DNA from: a virus
Lineage: Duplodnaviria > Caudoviricetes
Reading direction: 5' to 3' (one strand)
DNA: 62,259 nt
Virus record (IMG/VR): IMGVR_UViG_3300046003_005119
Coordinates: 1 to 62,259 of that record
The position numbers and the translations under genes were made by a program. The notes below the pieces were generated by a model. The model made no database searches, had not been told where the DNA came from, and saw nothing but the letters and a program-made list of their open reading frames with translations. Shown piece by piece: positions 1,529 to 44,593 of this stretch (within the stretch, counting starts at the first letter, position 1; every line of letters starts with the position of its first letter).

Positions 1529-2157
1529 CATCCCTGACCATCATAACCGAATGGAGCAGGATGACCAGTTCCATGGACATCTGTGGGCGTGTTGCTTGCC
1601 GCGCCCTGCCCTACAGCACAAGCAGCGGCCCCATAGGGCAGGGCAGGCGCGGGGCTTGCGGGGCTTGCGGGTGCTAGGGTAGCGCCCAAGGCTTGCGCCC
1701 CTCCAGCGGCCTTCCCAGCGCTCCGGATTAGGGCATCCAACAGCTGAATCGCAAATTCAAGTTGCTCGCGTCGCTGCCAATCAGACAGAATGCAGCAGAA
1801 CTGGTATTCAAGATCGGGTAGGTTGTTCGCCTTCTTGAAGCGAGCGTTCAATTCGTCGATGTTTTCGGGAGCTTCGATGGACAGCGCGTAGACTGCATCG
1901 AAGTTGACGATCATCTTCTGAACGTAGGTTTTCGCCTTCAGCAAGTCCTGAAGGCCGTTCTTCTTCCACCAGCGCGAAACATACTTCGTCGCGCATCCCT
2001 CGAGATAGCCGAGGCCGACATCAATAGCCCAGTCCCAATGCTGATACTCAGCCTGATAGTGTTCTCCACCCTCTTGGGCAACGAACACTGACTTCCGACA
2101 CATGCACATATTCGTGTCGTGGCCACAGGTGTCACAGTTGGTGTTTCCCATGATCAA
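1528..2157 (-). CDS. DUF3310/SaV-like (T7 gp1.7-like) protein with Ala/Pro-rich tail
   Basis: GGEHY...GYLEGCATKYVSRWWKKNGLQDLLKAKTY signature. Confidence 0.75.
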   Translation of the reverse strand: MIMGNTNCDTCGHDTNMCMCRKSVFVAQEGGEHYQAEYQHWDWAIDVGLGYLEGCATKYVSRWWKKNGLQDLLKAKTYVQKMIVNFDAVYALSIEAPENIDELNARFKKANNLPDLEYQFCCILSDWQRREQLEFAIQLLDALIRSAGKAAGGAQALGATLAPASPASPAPALPYGAAACAVGQGAASNTPTDVHGTGHPAPFGYDGQG

Positions 2158-2702
2158 ACTCCCAGATCGGGCAGGAACGCCCAGTCAGAGTTCTTGCATT
2201 CATGGAAGAGATTGAGAATCGGCTCGGGGAACCTTGCAGCGTCCCGCTTGAACCGGTCCTCGATCGCGGTTTGCATCGTGGTCAAGTTCAGGTTGCCAAG
2301 ACGCTTCTGATCTCTGGCATACAGGTAGAGTTCGAGAATATCGAGGCCCTTGAGCCAGAGATGGAGTTCTTCACTCAGACCGATGAAGTGCTGCTCGCCG
2401 AACAGTTCTTGAAGAACATCGAGTTCTTCCAGAACGACAGCTTCGTTGCTGTTGTGATAGACGTGTTTCAACGCCGGAGAAGGAACGTCTCCGATGACAC
2501 GCTCCGGGATATCGTGCTCGACGATCGCCCAGATGAGTTCCTTGGGTGCATCAACCCAAAGAAGGCGCAGCAGAGTCAGCATGTTGAAAGAGTGATGACC
2601 ATTGGAATATTCGCCAATGGTCCTGATAACATGCAGTCTCTGCACGTCAGCAGCTTCGCGCAGAAACTTCACACGCTCTTGATTTGTGAGCAGCTTATAC
2701 AT
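2154..2702 (-). CDS. HD-domain 5'-deoxynucleotidase (YfbR-like)
   Basis: VQRLH, YSNGHHS, EHDIPERVIGDVPSP, LKGLDILE motifs. Confidence 0.8.
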   Translation of the reverse strand: MYKLLTNQERVKFLREAADVQRLHVIRTIGEYSNGHHSFNMLTLLRLLWVDAPKELIWAIVEHDIPERVIGDVPSPALKHVYHNSNEAVVLEELDVLQELFGEQHFIGLSEELHLWLKGLDILELYLYARDQKRLGNLNLTTMQTAIEDRFKRDAARFPEPILNLFHECKNSDWAFLPDLGV

Positions 2703-11064: not shown

Positions 11065-11141
11065 TGGCGATCCTGGGAGGAATCGAACCCCCGACCCGCC
11101 GCTTAGAAGGCGGCTGCTCTATCCGGCTGAGCTACAGAATC
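11065..11141 (-). tRNA. trnR-UCU: tRNA-Arg(UCU)
   Basis: GATTCTG/CAGGATC acceptor stem, TAGCTCAG..GGATAGAGC D arm, anticodon loop CT-TCT-AA, GGTTCGATTCC T arm, encoded CCA. Confidence 0.95.
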
Positions 11142-31373: not shown

Positions 31374-32420
31374 TTATGCTTCGCGAGTCACCAGACGGGC
31401 GAACTTGATCATCTTGCGCTCCGGATAGACACGGTTCCAGGAAGTCGCATCATCCAGATCGCTGTTCGCCGGACCACCGTCGGGAACACCAGCCATCACG
31501 AAGGCGTGACCAGCGGGGTGCATGGACCACATGACGCGCGAATACAGCACGTCCTGACCGCCGCCATTGCCGCCTCCGGGCTTGCGATCGACTTCGGTCG
31601 CCACCGGAGGAGAGCCGACGCCGAGCTGAGTCGCGCCGGAGCCGAACAACCAAGTGTCATAGACGGAGCCCGTCCGAGGCAGACCGTCATCAACGATGAC
31701 TTCACGGCCCAAGAAGGTGGGAATCTGGATCTCGCCGCGAGCGTCGGGGATGAAGTCGATCAGGTTGTTTTTCTGCATCCGGTTGTAAACGACCGAGTGG
31801 ACAGCGACAGCAACCAGATCTTCCTGCGAATCGCCCATCGTTTGGGCGGTATCCAGGAAGGCTTCAGCCGAGAAGTTCGTCACACCATCGACGAAGGAAG
31901 CGCCGGAGATGTTGTTCGCATAGTCGCCCGAATCGTTCGCAGCGTTGTCAGCGATGACGCCGTTCCAGGTCGCGATGAAAGCGGTCTGCAGACGACGAAC
32001 CCAATAGGCCGAGACGCGGGAAGCGATCGACTGCATCGGATCAACACCAGCGAGAATCGCAGCGAGGTCGGTGGACGACCACGAGTTGTTCCGGTTGAGG
32101 CGAACAGCGATTTCTTTCAGAGTGCCGGTTTTCAGCGGATTCGGCGGACGAACAACGCCGGAGGGCAGCGAGGCGTCAGCGTCGGCGAACGGAACCGAGG
32201 TATCGGACGAGACGCGATCAGCGTCGTTATCCAGATCGCGGAACGACGGAACTTGGAAGGTCAAGCCACCGCCGCCGAGCAGGGTGTCCAAAGATTCCGA
32301 GCGAGCGAGCAGACCCGACTGAACCAGTCGCGACTTCTCTTCGGTCAGTTGCTGCATATAGGGGGTGAAGATCTCGGGAACGATAACGTCGCTCACCCGA
32401 GTCGCGGGACCTGCGGCCAT
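31374..32420 (-). CDS. Major capsid protein
   Basis: T.VSDVIVPEIF..Y, DPM..IA..V..YW, VIVDDGLP, W.RVY.E.K.I. Confidence 0.9.
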   Translation of the reverse strand: MAAGPATRVSDVIVPEIFTPYMQQLTEEKSRLVQSGLLARSESLDTLLGGGGLTFQVPSFRDLDNDADRVSSDTSVPFADADASLPSGVVRPPNPLKTGTLKEIAVRLNRNNSWSSTDLAAILAGVDPMQSIASRVSAYWVRRLQTAFIATWNGVIADNAANDSGDYANNISGASFVDGVTNFSAEAFLDTAQTMGDSQEDLVAVAVHSVVYNRMQKNNLIDFIPDARGEIQIPTFLGREVIVDDGLPRTGSVYDTWLFGSGATQLGVGSPPVATEVDRKPGGGNGGGQDVLYSRVMWSMHPAGHAFVMAGVPDGGPANSDLDDATSWNRVYPERKMIKFARLVTREA

Positions 32421-32507
32421 GAGATTGTCCTTTCATTGGCGCTTGAGGAAGGTGAGCGAACCCATGTTCGGCTCCAATGTCTGAAGCCAATGGCTCCAAT
32501 GACAATG

Positions 32508-32536
32508 ACCTTACCCTAGCGCCGCAAGAAAGGCAA
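32508..32536 (-). promoter_or_regulatory. sigma70-like promoter for the capsid gene
   Basis: TTGCCT-N17-TAAGGT. Confidence 0.5.
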
Positions 32537-32551
32537 TAGCTGTTTGATATG

Positions 32552-32590
32552 AAAATAGCCCGAGACGCGGGAGGAGGTGCGTCTCGGGCT
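32552..32590 (-). terminator. Intrinsic terminator-like hairpin with CCUCCUCCC loop
   Basis: 12-bp stem 32557-32568/32579-32590 followed by AUUUUC on the minus strand. Confidence 0.7.
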
Positions 32591-32962
32591 TCTCTACCAT
32601 CTAACCTCCCTCACCGGACAGTGAGATCTACGGTCGACATACCAGTTGTCCGTCTGGCTCGGTAGGATGTGAGGGGATGGTCTGCTGCTGACGCCCCTCG
32701 CGCCTCGTTCTGTCACCTCAGACCTTGAACCAATACGATACGGGAATACGTATTGACTTACCTTCATGACGGAAACTGGGGTGAACAGCGCCAGTCACAA
32801 AGTCCCGGTAACTAACTGAATTCCGAACGGCCTCCGGCACTGGGGACGTATATACCGGAGGCCGTTAGACCAGTGGAGCGCGGCGAGGTAGGCTACCAAA
32901 CCATCAAGCCGCGCACCCTTGGCCTTGCTTACACAATGCCCCAAGCGGCACGTCTAAGCAAG
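32552..32962 (-). ncRNA. Putative structured ncRNA (~410 nt)
   Basis: No ORF of 60 aa or more; at least six stems and a possible pseudoknot (see findings). Confidence 0.6.
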
Positions 32963-32963
32963 C

Positions 32964-33794
32964 TCATTTTTTCACGGTCGGGCGGGTCGCACCAACTTTC
33001 GATCCAGCAGCTTTCGCCATAGCCTCGGCGACAGCCATGCCTTTCTCACGAACGACAGCGCCCTGAGCAGTCATGTTCCAGGAATTCGCAGCCCACGGGT
33101 TCGCCTCACCACCGAAGCCACCACCACCGCCTCCGGCACCGCCACCAGCGGAGGCGGGCCACCAGTGAGGACGCTGTTTCTGCATTTCCTTCATGAAGTC
33201 TTTCACGTCGAGACCAGCGGTCAGCCCGTTCACACCAGCCTTGACGATGAACTTGCCGCTCTCGTCGCGCTCGAGATAGCTTTGGGCAATCAGCTCGATA
33301 TCAGCGATCGCGGTCGGAACAACCTTCATCTCGGTCGCCACAGCACGAATTGCATCGCTCATGTCACGACGTTGAAGGCCATTCTTCAGATCGTCGCGCT
33401 CCTGCTTCACGGTCGTCAACTCAGCAGTTGTGTCACGAAGTTGGCGTTCCAACGGAGCCGTCTTCTGAACCAGACGATTCTCGACAATCTGCTGGATCTT
33501 GGTCTCATCGATCTTTCCAGCCGCAGCAGCTTCGAGTTCAGCGACACGATCAAGCGTGGTCAAGACTTCATCAGGCTTCTTGCCCAAAGAAAGCCACGGC
33601 TTCAACGCTTCTTTCGCAGCGGCGTGATCAGCGCGTTCCTTGCGAAGGGCTTCCTGCACGTTGGAGACATCGGACTGAGTTTTCAGCCCATTGATTCCGG
33701 TCAGAACAGCCTTGCCATCTTTCTCCGTGAACAGAGAACGAAAGTTTTCGGGAACTGCCGAGATAGTGTCGTAGGAGAGTTCGAGCGTGTCCAT
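32964..33794 (-). CDS. Capsid scaffolding protein
   Basis: Coiled coil, Gly-rich linker, NPW...SWN.T.QG; between portal and capsid genes. Confidence 0.8.
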   Translation of the reverse strand: MDTLELSYDTISAVPENFRSLFTEKDGKAVLTGINGLKTQSDVSNVQEALRKERADHAAAKEALKPWLSLGKKPDEVLTTLDRVAELEAAAAGKIDETKIQQIVENRLVQKTAPLERQLRDTTAELTTVKQERDDLKNGLQRRDMSDAIRAVATEMKVVPTAIADIELIAQSYLERDESGKFIVKAGVNGLTAGLDVKDFMKEMQKQRPHWWPASAGGGAGGGGGGFGGEANPWAANSWNMTAQGAVVREKGMAVAEAMAKAAGSKVGATRPTVKK

Positions 33795-33818: not shown

Positions 33819-35330
33819 TCACTTGGCTGATTTTTGTTTCGGTTCCGAAGGCGGATCACCCGATATCGGATTGTCCGGGTCTTTGTTCGGTTGGTCTGGA
33901 GACAAATCGCCGGTCTTTGCCTTGGCGAAGACGAAGTCATCCTCGTCCTCCTTCTTGGCTTCAGCGATTTCTTCTTCGAACGAGCGAGTCGTCATGCGGC
34001 GCTTGCGAGCAAGATCGTGCATGGTTTTCGCGCTGATCGGGAAGCCGAGGTTGCGAGCAGTCGCCATTTCCACCATCGTCTGACCGGTGAGAGGCATCTC
34101 GCCAAATTCTTTGTTCGGTTTGACCTTGACTTCCTCTGGGTTCTCACCCATCCAGATAGCACAGGTCTTCAGGATGCTTTCGAGAGCGAGCGCACCAGTA
34201 TCAACAATCTGGTTCATGTCAGCGGTGCGAGCCGCGACACGGATCCTAAGGCTGTCACCGCTCTCACGTTCACGACTCGTCGTGTCCAGCGTTTGGGCTC
34301 CCATCGAGCCGGCACGGGCTTCAAGACGCTGAAGAGCTTCACGCTGCTCAGAAAGCCCAGTGGAGTTCACGCCGATATATTTCGCATCCGCGCCCATCGG
34401 GAGATCAACTCTCGCTCCGACACCAGTTCTCACCGTATCATCTTCAGCGAAGTTACCGCCGATTGTAACAAACGTGTCTTGACCCTGCATGAACAGATTC
34501 TGACGATAATCTGCTTCGGAGCGATAGATCGTCATGCAGAGGTTGCCGAGATCCAAAAGCGGCGGATCATCAACATCAGAAGTCACATCACACGAGTTGA
34601 TGATGACGAATGGAATATTCTGGAGAGTCTTGCCGCGCCAAGTCGGAGCCTTGAGTTTCGTGGTAGAATACTCGGTATCACCGAACACTCCCTGCACATA
34701 AAGACCACGAGATTCGTTTTCCAACTCGTCACCGATGATAAGAACACGATACTTCTCATCAGTCTCCCAGTTGAAGCCATCCGTCCGCTTGTTCTCAGTC
34801 TCGTCGAGGATGACGAAATTCAGAGTCTGAGGAATGACCTGATCAGAGCGGCCATCGTCCCAGTTGATGATTCTCTCTGCGACATACGTCGTCAGATACG
34901 GCAGATCTTCTCCAGGAGCAGGATTCGTCGGCAGATCAGCCATGAGACCGACTCGCCCAGTGATGAGCTGCTCAGTGTTGATCTTCCGGAGGAGAACTGG
35001 CAGCGGCTCACCCTTCGAACTCCGAATATTCTGCATCGATTTCGGTAGCTCGATGATCGGAGGCTGCGAGTGCATCATGCCGACTGCCATCTGCACAGCT
35101 TCACGCGTGAAGTTCGGAAATCTCGCTCGAACCTTCATGGCATTGTATGCCATCTGACCGACAGCAGTCTCAGACTTGCCGAATCCAGTCGCAATCTGAG
35201 AAGCAGTCGCTGGCAGATAAAGCGCGTTCTTCGACTTCACCTGACGCTCACCTCGATAAGCGTCACGCATGAGCGTCCAATCAGAATTGGTCGCCGAGAA
35301 CTGAGGATGTTTTGAGCTGAGAGTTACCAT
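33819..35330 (-). CDS. Portal protein (DUF4055-like)
   Basis: HPQ.....W..MRD...GE..VK....YLP, IPFV, PPLLDL; follows terminase. Confidence 0.85.
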   Translation of the reverse strand: MVTLSSKHPQFSATNSDWTLMRDAYRGERQVKSKNALYLPATASQIATGFGKSETAVGQMAYNAMKVRARFPNFTREAVQMAVGMMHSQPPIIELPKSMQNIRSSKGEPLPVLLRKINTEQLITGRVGLMADLPTNPAPGEDLPYLTTYVAERIINWDDGRSDQVIPQTLNFVILDETENKRTDGFNWETDEKYRVLIIGDELENESRGLYVQGVFGDTEYSTTKLKAPTWRGKTLQNIPFVIINSCDVTSDVDDPPLLDLGNLCMTIYRSEADYRQNLFMQGQDTFVTIGGNFAEDDTVRTGVGARVDLPMGADAKYIGVNSTGLSEQREALQRLEARAGSMGAQTLDTTSRERESGDSLRIRVAARTADMNQIVDTGALALESILKTCAIWMGENPEEVKVKPNKEFGEMPLTGQTMVEMATARNLGFPISAKTMHDLARKRRMTTRSFEEEIAEAKKEDEDDFVFAKAKTGDLSPDQPNKDPDNPISGDPPSEPKQKSAK

Positions 35331-35366: not shown

Positions 35367-36905
35367 TCAATAATGTCCAGAAGTTGAGCCAGTTCCGCCC
35401 ATATTCGAGATATGACGAACGAAATATCTCGTTTCGTCAGCGATGTGATCTTCGGCATCCGTGTTCACGTCGTCCTGATCTTTCTCATCTCTGGGCAAAA
35501 CTGGCACCGTTTCGATGAATGACAGACATTCGTCGAAGATGAACATTCCAGGCTGTTCACGAGGATACATGAGAAGGACATCCTCTTTAGTCGGATGTTT
35601 TCTCATCGTCGGATGAGCATTTTTCAGCCTCTGACGCATCTGGTTCCAGCCTGTCACACGCGATCCAGGACGTTTATCAGCCGGAGCCCACTGAATTCCA
35701 GGATACTTGTTTCCATCATCCAATCTGACTTTGACTTTCATGTCTGTCGCGATGCAGTTGCCGTTCTCAGCGGCGAAAATCTGCGAGTCAGCGACTCCGC
35801 CCTTCACTCGACACCAGTCTTCACCTGGAATTCTCCAGTTCCACGCCAGCTCTTTCTCGACAATTCCAGCCGCGATGTCAGTCGCGAGCATTCGGAGACC
35901 CTCGTTGGGCTTTCCTGTCGAGCCATACCATTCTTTCACACGGAAAGAGTCTCCCTTGATCGTCGAGCGCCATGATCCATCACGAAGCTGAACGTCTTCT
36001 CCATTCGAAATGGCCCACCAGCCCACAGAGAAAGGCTTCGATTCTCCCCAGTCGAAGGAGCGGATGATACGCCAATTCAACGGTATCTCAAAGTTTGAGA
36101 TTACATTAAATCGAGGTTCCCATACATCGTCGAACATACCGCCAGCGACGATGTCCCATGACCCTTCGAGCCATGCTTTCTTCTCCGCCGCGTTTCTCGC
36201 TGACGCTGCAATCTTCTGTTTGTATTCAGGATCGGCCTCGAGCAGAGCCGTGTTCTCGTCGATATGCGAGTGGATGCTCAGGCGAGGAGGCTCGGAGTTC
36301 CCTTCTTCATCTTTCAGATCGCGACGGACGATCATGTTCATGCTGTTGGGCTTGAACCTGTGTTTCACCCAGTTGTGACCGGGACCATATGGGTTCGTCG
36401 TCGCGCGAACCATACGAGGCATTCCCTTTGTCGACGAACGACAACACGAGAACATCCTCTTGTAGCCCTCATCATTCGCCCAGTTGCACAACTCTTCCCA
36501 ACCAATCCAGGGATATTCGTGACCGTGATAGTTCCAATAGTCGTCAGCTTTCATGAACTGGCGAAGCAGAAGCTGTTCTCCTCCAGGAAACGTCCAGACA
36601 TGCTCGGAGTTGTTGAATTTCGCTTCCGGCCAGATCTGAGGGATCCACTTTTTCGTTTTCGAGATAATATCCGTCAATTGTTTATACGTTTGACGGAATA
36701 GAATTCCCTTCCAGCCAGCCCCGTATCCCTTTCCGACGTGCATACAGAAGCTCATAATCAATGAGTCTGTCTTGCCGCCTCCGCGAGTTCCTTCGAACAA
36801 GACTTCGAAGATTGGGTGAGCTGCGAGGAAGGCCTCTTGGCTTCCTCGCATGGGTCGCCAAATCACGTTCTTGGGGAATTGCATACTCATTTCAGCACAT
36901 ACCAT
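35367..36905 (-). CDS. terL: Terminase large subunit
   Basis: GTRGGGKT, WEEL, TTNPYGPGH.WVK, RSFDWG, EDHIADE.RY. Start probably 36887 or 36881. Confidence 0.95.
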   Translation of the reverse strand: MVCAEMSMQFPKNVIWRPMRGSQEAFLAAHPIFEVLFEGTRGGGKTDSLIMSFCMHVGKGYGAGWKGILFRQTYKQLTDIISKTKKWIPQIWPEAKFNNSEHVWTFPGGEQLLLRQFMKADDYWNYHGHEYPWIGWEELCNWANDEGYKRMFSCCRSSTKGMPRMVRATTNPYGPGHNWVKHRFKPNSMNMIVRRDLKDEEGNSEPPRLSIHSHIDENTALLEADPEYKQKIAASARNAAEKKAWLEGSWDIVAGGMFDDVWEPRFNVISNFEIPLNWRIIRSFDWGESKPFSVGWWAISNGEDVQLRDGSWRSTIKGDSFRVKEWYGSTGKPNEGLRMLATDIAAGIVEKELAWNWRIPGEDWCRVKGGVADSQIFAAENGNCIATDMKVKVRLDDGNKYPGIQWAPADKRPGSRVTGWNQMRQRLKNAHPTMRKHPTKEDVLLMYPREQPGMFIFDECLSFIETVPVLPRDEKDQDDVNTDAEDHIADETRYFVRHISNMGGTGSTSGHY

Positions 36906-37832: not shown

Positions 37833-38315
37833 CTATGCCTTGGCAGGCGCAGGCGCGGGCGCGGCAGCGGTTGCCACAGGCGCGGCAGCGGCAGCGGCAG
37901 CGGTTGCCACAGGCACAAGCCAAGCCTGCGCGGCGGCCCATTGCGGCATGTTGTGGCGCTGCCAGCCCCCATTTGGCGGGGCAAGCGTGGGGCTTGCGGC
38001 TGCACTGGCCACCAGCGCGGCGCGGTATTGCGCCAAGGTAAAGCCGTTGGGCTGCACCTTGGCAAGCGCCTGTGCCACTTGGCAGGCAAAAGCGCGGTGG
38101 CCACGCTGCCCCACAGGCCAGCCAGCGCTTGCGGCTGCACTGTAGGGCATATAGGTGTAAAGTGCCGCGCCAATGGCCACAGCAACGGGCGCGGCGGTTG
38201 CGGTTGCAACGGGCGCGGCGGGCGCGGGCGCGGTTGCGGTTGCGGTTGCAACGGGCGCGGGGGCAGTAGCCTTGCCAGCGGTTGCGGTTGCGGTGTTTTT
38301 GTTAGCTTGTGCCAT
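37833..38315 (-). CDS. Ala/Thr/Pro-rich protein with no Asp or Glu (160 aa)
   Basis: Preceded by the AGGCTACCA leader and a promoter, followed by hairpins; lies wholly inside the GA/TC-free island. Confidence 0.7.
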   Translation of the reverse strand: MAQANKNTATATAGKATAPAPVATATATAPAPAAPVATATAAPVAVAIGAALYTYMPYSAAASAGWPVGQRGHRAFACQVAQALAKVQPNGFTLAQYRAALVASAAASPTLAPPNGGWQRHNMPQWAAAQAWLVPVATAAAAAAAPVATAAAPAPAPAKA

Positions 38316-38369: not shown

Positions 38370-38399
38370 TATATAGCGCCATAGCGCGGCAAAAGCCAA
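38370..38399 (-). promoter_or_regulatory. Promoter of the Ala-rich gene
   Basis: TTGGCT-N18-TATATA. Confidence 0.5.
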
Positions 38400-38524
38400 G
38401 TAACATGTTGTTACAGATTGTAACAATTTGTTACCGGAAATGCAGTAACGTTTTGTTGCAGGCTGTAACAATTTGTTACCGGAAATGCAGTAACGTTTTG
38501 TTACAGCCTGTAACAATTTGTTAC
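38400..38524. repeat. Array of six GTAAC-N5-GTTAC palindromes (45-bp tandem period)
   Basis: Boxes start at 38400, 38420, 38445 (one mismatch), 38465, 38490, 38510. Confidence 0.9.
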
Positions 38525-39749: not shown

Positions 39750-39965
39750 TCAGGCTAGCGCCCCTGCAACTGCTTTTTCAAAGGCTTCCAGCTTTTCCAC
39801 CACTTCGACCATGTTCGTGCATGTCGGGCTCATGGTCATCTCGATCGTCCCCCAAAAGTTCATCAACTTCCGCGTGGGGTGGTGGTATTGCGCCACAAAT
39901 TCTTCTTCCGGATCCTGCCCTTCGCGGTAGTAAAGCAGGTAATCGCCAGTGTCTTTCGTCAGCAT
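39750..39965 (-). CDS. Small early protein
   Basis: Own promoter and leader motif. Confidence 0.65.
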   Translation of the reverse strand: MLTKDTGDYLLYYREGQDPEEEFVAQYHHPTRKLMNFWGTIEMTMSPTCTNMVEVVEKLEAFEKAVAGALA

Positions 39966-40000
39966 TTGGTAGCCCTTTCATTTGGTAGCCTTGCCCTTAC

Positions 40001-40144: not shown

Positions 40145-40378
40145 TCACTCGGCTCTTAGAATGAGCTTCATGAGCTCATACAGATCGTCACAGAACGTAA
40201 CGAACCCGAGCTCGCTGATATAGATATGCTGCTCTCCGCTGATGTAGCCGACGTCTCCCATATCTGTGAAGACTTTGTTATCCTCTGTATCAGCGATACC
40301 GTTACCGAGTGTGCAGATATACATGGAGATGTCCTCCAGTTCTGCTTCGGTGAAGTCACGCGGCTCATAGATTTTCAT
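40145..40378 (-). CDS. Small acidic early protein
   Basis: Own promoter and leader motif. Confidence 0.65.
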   Translation of the reverse strand: MKIYEPRDFTEAELEDISMYICTLGNGIADTEDNKVFTDMGDVGYISGEQHIYISELGFVTFCDDLYELMKLILRAE

Positions 40379-40412
40379 TTGGTAGCCCTTTCATTGGTAG
40401 CCTTGTCCTTAC

Positions 40413-44316: not shown

Positions 44317-44449
44317 ATCTTTTGTGTGCCTTTGGTTATGGGGGCAAGCGGCCCCTGTTTTGAGACCCCAACGGGGCCGTCAGAAGGCCGCTGGAGGGGC
44401 GTTGACTATGCCCCCGCTAGGGTGGTAGCCTAGCGGGTGCAAAGGGCCG

Positions 44450-44593
44450 TCAGAAGGCCGCTTTTAGCATCTCGACTGGCGTGATGCAGGCAGGGTTTTC
44501 CCAGGAATCACAACCCATCACGATGTTCATCAAAATGAATGTGATCAGCATGGTCATAAGCACGATTGCGAGAATCATCAGAAGATGTTTCAT
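44450..44593 (-). CDS. Small membrane protein
   Basis: Leader motif; TM then GC.SW..P.C; promoter TTGTTT-N17-TATACT at 44621-44649. Confidence 0.6.
   Translation of the reverse strand: MKHLLMILAIVLMTMLITFILMNIVMGCDSWENPACITPVEMLKAAF

Follow-up and report, generated by a model that had tools for sequence, protein, structure and literature searches.

A modular hairpin tail behind the scaffold gene of an uncultured freshwater phage, with a conserved loop that may act on early translation starts

What lies in the gap, devoid of long open reading frames (ORFs), between the head scaffolding gene and the major head gene of IMG/VR virus record IMGVR_UViG_3300046003_005119, and what could it do for the phage? 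The window, that is, the whole stretch of 62,259 bp analysed here, is this complete-looking record (98%) of an uncultured ~62-kb freshwater siphovirus-like phage. Nearly all of its long ORFs are on the minus strand, as are the features described below. In minus-strand order, the scaffold gene (32964-33794; phrog_206, E 3.7e-37) is followed after 543 nt by the major head, or capsid, gene (31374-32420; phrog_247, E 6.7e-99). A preliminary description had read the gap as one structured non-coding RNA of ~410 nt with an H-type pseudoknot. Our analysis indicates that the scaffold gene has a structured 3' tail here, which ends at a predicted terminator before the capsid promoter is reached and which appears to be under structural selection in some of its parts. 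Judged from sequence comparison, this tail is a chain of swappable, independent modules (hairpins H1, H2 and H3, a middle piece M, and a module E with the terminator) rather than one 410-nt RNA, and two of its loops may be directed against translation starts of early genes.

The observation from which the preliminary description started, the stems and the structure of the gap, was confirmed. All seven listed stem pairs are present, including 32826-37/32855-66 (12 bp, 100%), 32608-14/32669-75, 32731-37/32749-55, 32924-34/32952-62 and the 12-bp core 32557-68/32579-90, as are both hexamers of the proposed pseudoknot, CACTGG and CCAGTG. The order of scaffold stop, terminator and capsid promoter is likewise right on the minus strand, given the gene positions. 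The stretch 32548-32963 adjoins the scaffold stop codon (32964-32966) on the same strand and runs to that gene's terminator, which is the position expected of an RNA derived from a 3' untranslated region (3'UTR). Folded as a minus-strand RNA, 32545-32963 reaches a minimum free energy (MFE) of -181.3 kcal/mol, compared with -149.9 +/- 5.9 kcal/mol for shuffled sequences (z -5.35; none of 100 did as well); for the plus strand, z is -4.11. Only four hairpins beat shuffles individually: H1 (32924-32962; MFE -20.7, z -4.62), which is the first hairpin right after the stop, H2 (32867-32925; z -3.04), H3 (32826-32866; MFE -28.2, z -5.60), a GC-rich hairpin of 12-15 bp, and the terminator. The listed stems 32731-37/32749-55, 32608-14/32669-75 and 32615-20/32647-52 sit in parts that, in this sequence alone, are at chance stability.

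With regard to the extent of the structure, the idea of one ~410-nt RNA is largely refuted. The 155 nt of M (32666-32820) are absent from a near-identical natural variant: among contigs from four DNA runs, one from run X4 (another study; 179 nt, depth 3.6) has 32665 and 32821 separated by one base only. This evidence for the indel is one low-depth contig. Contigs of X3, from a further study, match the window without a difference over part of M; X2 gave no match on the region, and X3, X4 and X7 left parts of the stretch uncovered. The M-less junction is the arrangement of the related locus L021, in which the third hairpin runs straight into CUACCGAGCC, H3 abutting E. M, which folds with a z of -1.38 (22 of 200 shuffles as good), is probably an indel between near-identical strains, and the modules would hence be separable. 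The listed stem 32608-14/32669-75 bridges the boundary of M and is therefore excluded from an ancestral fold. E, in turn, occurs in only 2 of 80 related loci, and in close relatives the gap has no more than 205-273 nt. As for the pseudoknot, H3, the hairpin on which it was built, has no sequence counterpart in the relatives by blastn or nhmmer, and an equal match between loop and flank hexamers arose in 2631 of 20,000 shuffled loops (13%), which is chance level.

Searches for known families and homologues of the gap were largely empty. No Rfam family reaches its gathering threshold in the gap; at this level the whole window yields only a tRNA-Arg (anticodon TCT) at 11065-11141, and at the E-value level the gap and its counterpart in L021 yield only sub-threshold ar14, CcsR1, mraW and miRNA-type matches. 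ARAGORN found no tRNA or tmRNA in the gap. A blastn search with the gap found nothing at E <= 1 in phage and plasmid records and, in the 80 capsid-related loci, matched the capsid leader and nothing else. Searches of ~390 fetched loci by nhmmer gave no match for each module (H1-H3, M, E), M having no relative among them.

The relatives, which came from a capsid-based IMG/VR scan, show what the ancestral arrangement may have been. Both genes could be placed in 75 of the 80 loci, and the gap between them measures 78-273 nt in 68 and 332-1347 nt in seven; it is 150-273 nt in the closest relatives (capsid identity 79-87%) and 738-1347 nt in L047, L052 and L073. The shared plan begins with a CUUG-initial hairpin right after the stop, a second hairpin, a long GC-rich hairpin and a U/A-rich stretch. 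It ends with a -35/-10 pair of the TTGCAA-N17-TATGGT type, a leader in which one or two small hairpins are conserved, AAAGGA and the ATG. C2, T3, T4 and G5 of the CUUG start of H1 are invariant in six aligned relatives, and RNAalifold recovered the third hairpin with compensatory changes in 7 of 11 predicted pairs. The window matches this plan at both ends (H1-H3 after the stop; promoter, leader and ribosome-binding site (RBS) before the capsid gene), with ~270 extra nt between. H3 occupies the site of the relatives' scaffold terminator hairpin and itself has no U tract.

In record G002, H1, H2 and the terminator stand directly behind the scaffold gene, followed by ~2.4 kb of extra ORFs and then the capsid leader. 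The H1-H2-terminator block stays with the scaffold gene there and therefore belongs to its 3' end. This insertion (L370 7180-9950) comprises about four ORFs, and the scaffold-capsid junction is an insertion hot spot. H1, H2 and a terminator hairpin thus appear to form an ancestral core that moves with the scaffold gene, and a separate conserved promoter-like site probably serves the capsid gene. The latter (32508-32536) has a -35 element TTGCCT (32531-32536), a 17-nt spacer and a -10 element TAAGGT (32508-32513); T428, T429, G430, C431, T451, A452 and T456 of this pair are invariant in a six-sequence alignment. A generic promoter scan did not flag it, and the same kind of scan found no internal promoter-like site in the minus-strand tail. 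The capsid leader (32421-32507; RBS AAAGGA at 32428-32433) matches L024, L019 and L013 by nhmmer and L024 by blastn (85%). Just upstream of the RBS, it contains a hairpin (~32455-32475) of the type GCGAACAUGGGUUCGC, which is kept in many relatives.

The interpretation of the region in the preliminary description was partly supported by these data. The place of the region in the scaffold 3'UTR, the terminator-like hairpin at its end and the promoter-like pair behind it agree with that interpretation, as do compensatory changes across relatives in at least H2, the third hairpin and module E; the single fold and the pseudoknot had to be given up.

H2 is the most telling of the modules. Its apical loop carries the word UGGUAGCC (32891-32898), and UGGUAG(C/U)C is present upstream of the capsid gene in 17 of 81 gaps, in 11 distinct versions, with three more copies elsewhere in G001 and G002. 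The word lies in the apical loop in all 14 H2 copies, and the arms differ between copies. Shuffling the flanks is a weak control for hairpins with one G-rich and one C-rich arm, and arms were swapped between copies instead: own arms gave a mean of -16.6 kcal/mol versus -14.2 kcal/mol for swapped arms, with 104 of 20,000 permutations as good, which suggests that the arms covary. A covariance model of H2, whose alignment is ungapped and does not register shifted stems, gave no additional copy, either in the window or in eight more distant relatives, and none in the capsid-gene loci L001 (PhiJL001) and L002 (JG012). Record G001 has two more H2-like hairpins at operon junctions (L367 526-573 and L368 9387-9434, both minus strand), each of which follows a stop codon in a run of hairpins beside terminator-like stems.

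The loop word UGGUAGCC is the reverse complement of AGGCUACCA, and this 9-mer has 12 copies on the phage mRNA strand, mostly 0-4 nt before start codons of the early region. Longer complements of the loop also recur in the window, with 4-5 copies for 10-mers and two for the 11-mer AGGCUACCAAA. The mRNA strand has 16 copies of the seven-letter word GGCTACC (GGCUACC in RNA) and the opposite strand a single one, the latter being H2 itself. The expectation is 1-3.3 under Markov models of orders 1-3 (3.3 for the third order), and the word is among the six most over-represented 7-mers of the mRNA strand. At twelve of the 16 sites, an ATG follows after 0-4 nt and starts an ORF of at least 45 codons (47-160 codons), against a background of 11.8% that was obtained with a wider window of 0-12 nt. 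A contiguous complement to start regions, placed in a loop predicted to be single-stranded, is what would be expected of an antisense RNA.

The genes that bear the word lie in the early/replication arm, which also holds ligase, primase and DNA polymerase, and typically come first after TTGTCA-N17-CATACT promoter-like sites; the labels 'early' and 'late' rest here on gene content and promoter-like sites. Near-identical promoter-leader cassettes precede small ORFs of this arm at gene starts 43642, 44593, 47381, 48380 and 56558 (minus strand), with TTGTCA-N17-CATACT (TATACT at 44593), a leader of ~25 nt, and GGAGG, the seven-letter word and ATG. At two neighbouring small genes (39965-39996 and 40378-40408, minus strand), the start region is tandemly doubled as word-AAAUG-AAAGG-word-AAAUG. 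A 9-bp hairpin at 44415-44445 (minus strand) presents the start-region word in its own loop, with no start codon nearby, and could be a loop-loop partner for H2.

Outside the early genes, the word is present at the start of a 160-aa Ala/Pro/Thr-rich gene that heads the packaging operon, in all seven records that cover this gene. It is in the spacer before the ATG in two of them and in codons 2-3 in the other five, which looks like a constraint at the nucleotide level. The complementarity also extends to a relative. G001 has a start region of which 14 nt are complementary to the H2 loop of the window, and its own H2 loop forms 12 pairs, including two G-U pairs, with three of its own start regions, GGCUACCAUGUC, as determined by reading.

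The second loop of interest belongs to module E, a stretch of 118 nt (32665 down to 32548) that aligns with L021 and L022. The capsid identity of these two loci to the window is 83%, and the closer relatives L004, L024 and L013 have no E. Among the matches listed in five pattern scans of viral contigs, E was found elsewhere in L021 and L022 only, and a profile search of the fetched loci gave these two and their duplicates. No copy was found in pattern scans of genome contigs or of metagenome contigs, a metagenome collection that is incomplete for E, as L021's own source was missed in it. E is probably an accessory cassette common to one other lineage. Its 5' domain (32593-32665) is predicted to form a three-way junction with a CUACC/GGUAG closure, common to L021 and L022. 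RNAalifold gave seven compensatory pairs, compared with a maximum of five in 1000 column shuffles, and a consensus energy z of -4.56; in the window sequence alone, z is -1.31 (17 of 200 shuffles as good). In the modelled fold, the invariant CGGACA and GUCC are located in two hairpin loops and could contact each other, and the listed stem 32615-20/32647-52 can be recast as this loop-loop contact.

The 3' part of E (32548-32592) is a perfect 12-bp hairpin (32579-32590/32557-32568; MFE -24.9 kcal/mol, z -7.91) with the 10-nt loop ACCUCCUCCC, directly followed by the U-rich tract UAUUUUCAU. A GC-rich stem-loop with such a tract has the make-up of an intrinsic terminator, which we predict it to be. 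A generic terminator scan, with a loop limit of 8, missed it. The L021 stem has other bases at 5 of 11 positions, each time with compensation, and the nine-letter loop word CCUCCUCCC is unchanged. In the whole window, this word occurs once (32569-32577), and the other loops of the tail do not contain it. A riboswitch-like reading of E, as a three-way junction coupled to a terminator, was dropped: the junctions are 0-3 nt long, there is no family match, and the promoter comes after the terminator.

Given these data, we tentatively prefer, with slightly less than an even chance of being right, the reading that the tail terminates and stabilises the scaffold transcript and also presents anti-RBS loops to early start regions, which would help late shut-off. 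The terminator and the stable hairpins would end the scaffold transcript and shield it from 3' exonucleases, and this termination would uncouple the dosage of scaffold from that of capsid. The tail, or fragments cut from it, would build up late and offer two single-stranded loops to ribosome-binding regions. The H2 loop UGGUAGCCU would pair with AGGCUACCA, which corresponds to the end of the Shine-Dalgarno sequence and the spacer, at the first genes behind early promoters and at the first gene of the packaging operon. The terminator loop CCUCCUCCC would pair with GGAGG-type Shine-Dalgarno sequences. Such pairing would block initiation and help to silence early genes once the structural genes are on. 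A more far-reaching version, in which the H2 antisense loop and an accessory three-way-junction module with an anti-Shine-Dalgarno terminator loop silence early genes at head assembly as a timer made of RNA only, is, in our view, rather unlikely.

To our knowledge, most of what is known about the timed shut-off of early genes in tailed phages concerns proteins, and the mapping of RNA regulators of lytic phages is only beginning. If true, an RNA-only timer, assembled from swappable RNA 'morons', would add a layer of regulation that has not been described for tailed phages. If the H2 loop pairs with the early start cassette, a clade of uncultured freshwater phages would have this simple timer as a conserved feature. 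The locus would, in addition, make the scaffold-capsid junction a hot spot at which non-coding RNA cassettes, such as E and M, come and go, and not protein morons alone.

Several results weigh against an antisense role. Shuffled H2 flanks often pair as well as the real ones, and the flanks of the H2 loop match their own genome no better than other genomes. A naive duplex-energy scan is unspecific, with many unrelated sites scoring at least as well as the start regions. The 9-mer is frequent only in the window, as compared with three copies in G001, one in G002 and 0-1 in eight other records (seven distant genomes without H2, and G011, in which the H2 region is cut off), whereas H2 is conserved more widely. 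The additional H2-like hairpins of G001 fit a protein-binding or processing site equally well, and a protein that binds double-stranded DNA would see the same word in either orientation. With regard to E, the comparison rests on two independent sequences, and neither its 5' domain nor M is unusually stable in this sequence by itself.

The main rival explanation is a passive tail, with hairpins whose only functions are termination or attenuation and, at the boundary of the scaffold and capsid transcription units, stabilisation of the 3' end or insulation. A protein would then bind or process H2 (for instance, an RNase, an autoregulator or a nut-like antitermination factor), and the complementarity of its word would have no role in trans. 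We regard this explanation as plausible, if somewhat improbable. It accounts for the fact that the discrete hairpins alone beat shuffles, that modules are gained and lost among close relatives, that the G001 copies occur at two other operon junctions beside terminator-like stems, that the duplex-energy scan lacks specificity, and that H2 is kept in relatives with few copies of the target word. Against it, what is conserved in H2 is its loop, whose sequence is precisely the reverse complement of a 7-mer among the six most over-represented on the mRNA strand, and there is the 14-nt match to a start region of a relative. Such a match would be improbable if the two were unrelated. Even if the passive explanation holds, the picture of one large RNA is corrected: the region consists of separable hairpins strung around a terminator.

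It is less probable still that E is a captured or convergent anti-Shine-Dalgarno small RNA (sRNA) of the cuckoo type, similar to ar14, NfeR1 or CcsR, which acts mainly on host mRNAs, with the rest of the tail being incidental. The loop CCUCCUCCC is behind the sub-threshold Rfam matches: the terminator loop and its closing bases fit the ar14 consensus (33.6 bits, E 1.4e-4; gathering 58.8), and the L021 copy matches CcsR1 (28.2 bits, E 5.4e-5; gathering 65.3) as well as ar14 (20.0 bits). The loop word is kept even where the stem is altered, and the patchy spread of E resembles that of a moron-type cassette. Nevertheless, both Rfam scores fall far short of the gathering values, no promoter of E's own was seen, and the scans of genome and metagenome contigs gave no copy. 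Membership in the family requires 2-4 neighbouring hairpins that all have the CCUCCUCCC loop motif, with linkers of at most 10 nt between them, and the family is reported from alphaproteobacteria only (PMC4615179); E has one motif hairpin. Membership of E in the cuckoo family was rejected on the grounds of its one hairpin and its Rfam scores. The geometry given for a single cuckoo module (hairpin of 24-50 nt, loop of 9-27 nt, helix of at least 6 bp) does agree with that of the terminator (34 nt, loop of 10 nt, stem of 12 bp). With one motif hairpin and one occurrence of the word in the window, E therefore resembles a single cuckoo module and not a member of the family. A literature search, which did not extend to supplements, found no mention of the nine-letter motif together with 'phage'. 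An unrelated IMG/VR contig, L104, has two adjacent hairpins at 2126-2186 (minus strand), each with the nine-letter C-rich loop word, in a cuckoo-like arrangement.

An element that acts at the level of DNA, namely an operator for a DNA-binding regulator whose word stands at early leaders and, in inverted orientation, behind the scaffold gene, appears very improbable, and so does a hidden small protein gene. The word is the same duplex in both orientations, and operator-like palindromes are found elsewhere in the genome. On the other hand, the H2 word is in the loop of a hairpin with covarying arms, which points to a single-stranded form, and in the early genes it stands between the Shine-Dalgarno sequence and the ATG, downstream of promoter-like sites. 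As for a hidden gene, the six small ORFs of the gap matched no PHROG or Pfam family at the thresholds used (one Pfam match, at 0.027, is far below the cut-off), their Shine-Dalgarno context is not conserved with L021, and two of them are broken in the M-less variant. The least tenable explanation is the single ~410-nt RNA with its pseudoknot, since, for all its overall fold and its complete set of stems, a natural variant lacks M, relatives share parts of it only, with gaps of mostly 78-273 nt, one stem spans the indel boundary, the hexamer match is at chance level and no Rfam family fits.

The tail is placed within a block of structural genes, with the terminase large subunit gene at 35367-36905 and the portal gene at 33819-35330 ahead of the scaffold gene. 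Upstream of the 160-aa ORF 37833-38315, at the head of the terminase/portal/scaffold block, four GTAACA-N3/4-TGTTAC palindromes are found at 38395-38480 (minus strand), which looks like an operator array for a phage regulator. The 7-mer CTTGGGC has 26 copies on the mRNA strand of the whole window, 5.4 times the third-order Markov expectation. DNA runs with near-identical sequence come from lake, groundwater and freshwater metagenomes. By capsid DNA, the nearest named phages are PhiJL001 and NP1/YuA-like Pseudomonas and Stenotrophomonas phages (65-68% identity). The capsid relatives found in genome bins are short or phage-sized contigs to which various phyla are assigned.

Several known systems resemble parts of this tail. 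Bacterial sRNAs derived from 3'UTRs include CcsR, from the tail of RSP_6037, and CisR, from the tail of prtV (PMC8034643, PMC13250501). Like these, a regulator in the window would share the terminator of the upstream gene and follow directly after its stop; the bacterial cases are known as RNAs, whereas the tail of the window is known here as sequence. The cuckoo family (ar14, RF02344; CcsR1, RF02791; NfeR1, CcsR1-4) shares with E a 34-nt hairpin with a 12-bp stem and a 10-nt CCUCCUCCC loop at the 3' end of a transcript, and stems that vary around a constant loop word (PMC4615179). In contrast to this family, E has a single motif hairpin and Rfam scores of about half the gathering values, is preceded by an unrelated three-way-junction domain, and is phage-borne behind a scaffold gene; the family is reported from alphaproteobacteria, and the host of the window phage is not known to be an alphaproteobacterium.

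Among phages, the c4 RNA of P1 and P7, the sar RNA of P22 and the CI RNA of P4 are antisense regulators of ribosome-binding sites. The likeness consists in a phage RNA loop that is complementary to translation-initiation regions of the same phage, with several targets per regulator. In contrast to these RNAs, the antisense word proposed here, from sequence alone, is in the 3' tail of a late structural mRNA; it has no dedicated small gene, is not transcribed opposite its target, and would be directed at a dozen early leaders. Finally, in phage T4, RegB and RegA are proteins that shut off early mRNAs at Shine-Dalgarno regions. The late inactivation of early translation starts that share a short word would be similar in the window phage, with the difference that T4 uses proteins for this purpose, whereas the window phage is proposed to use an RNA loop.

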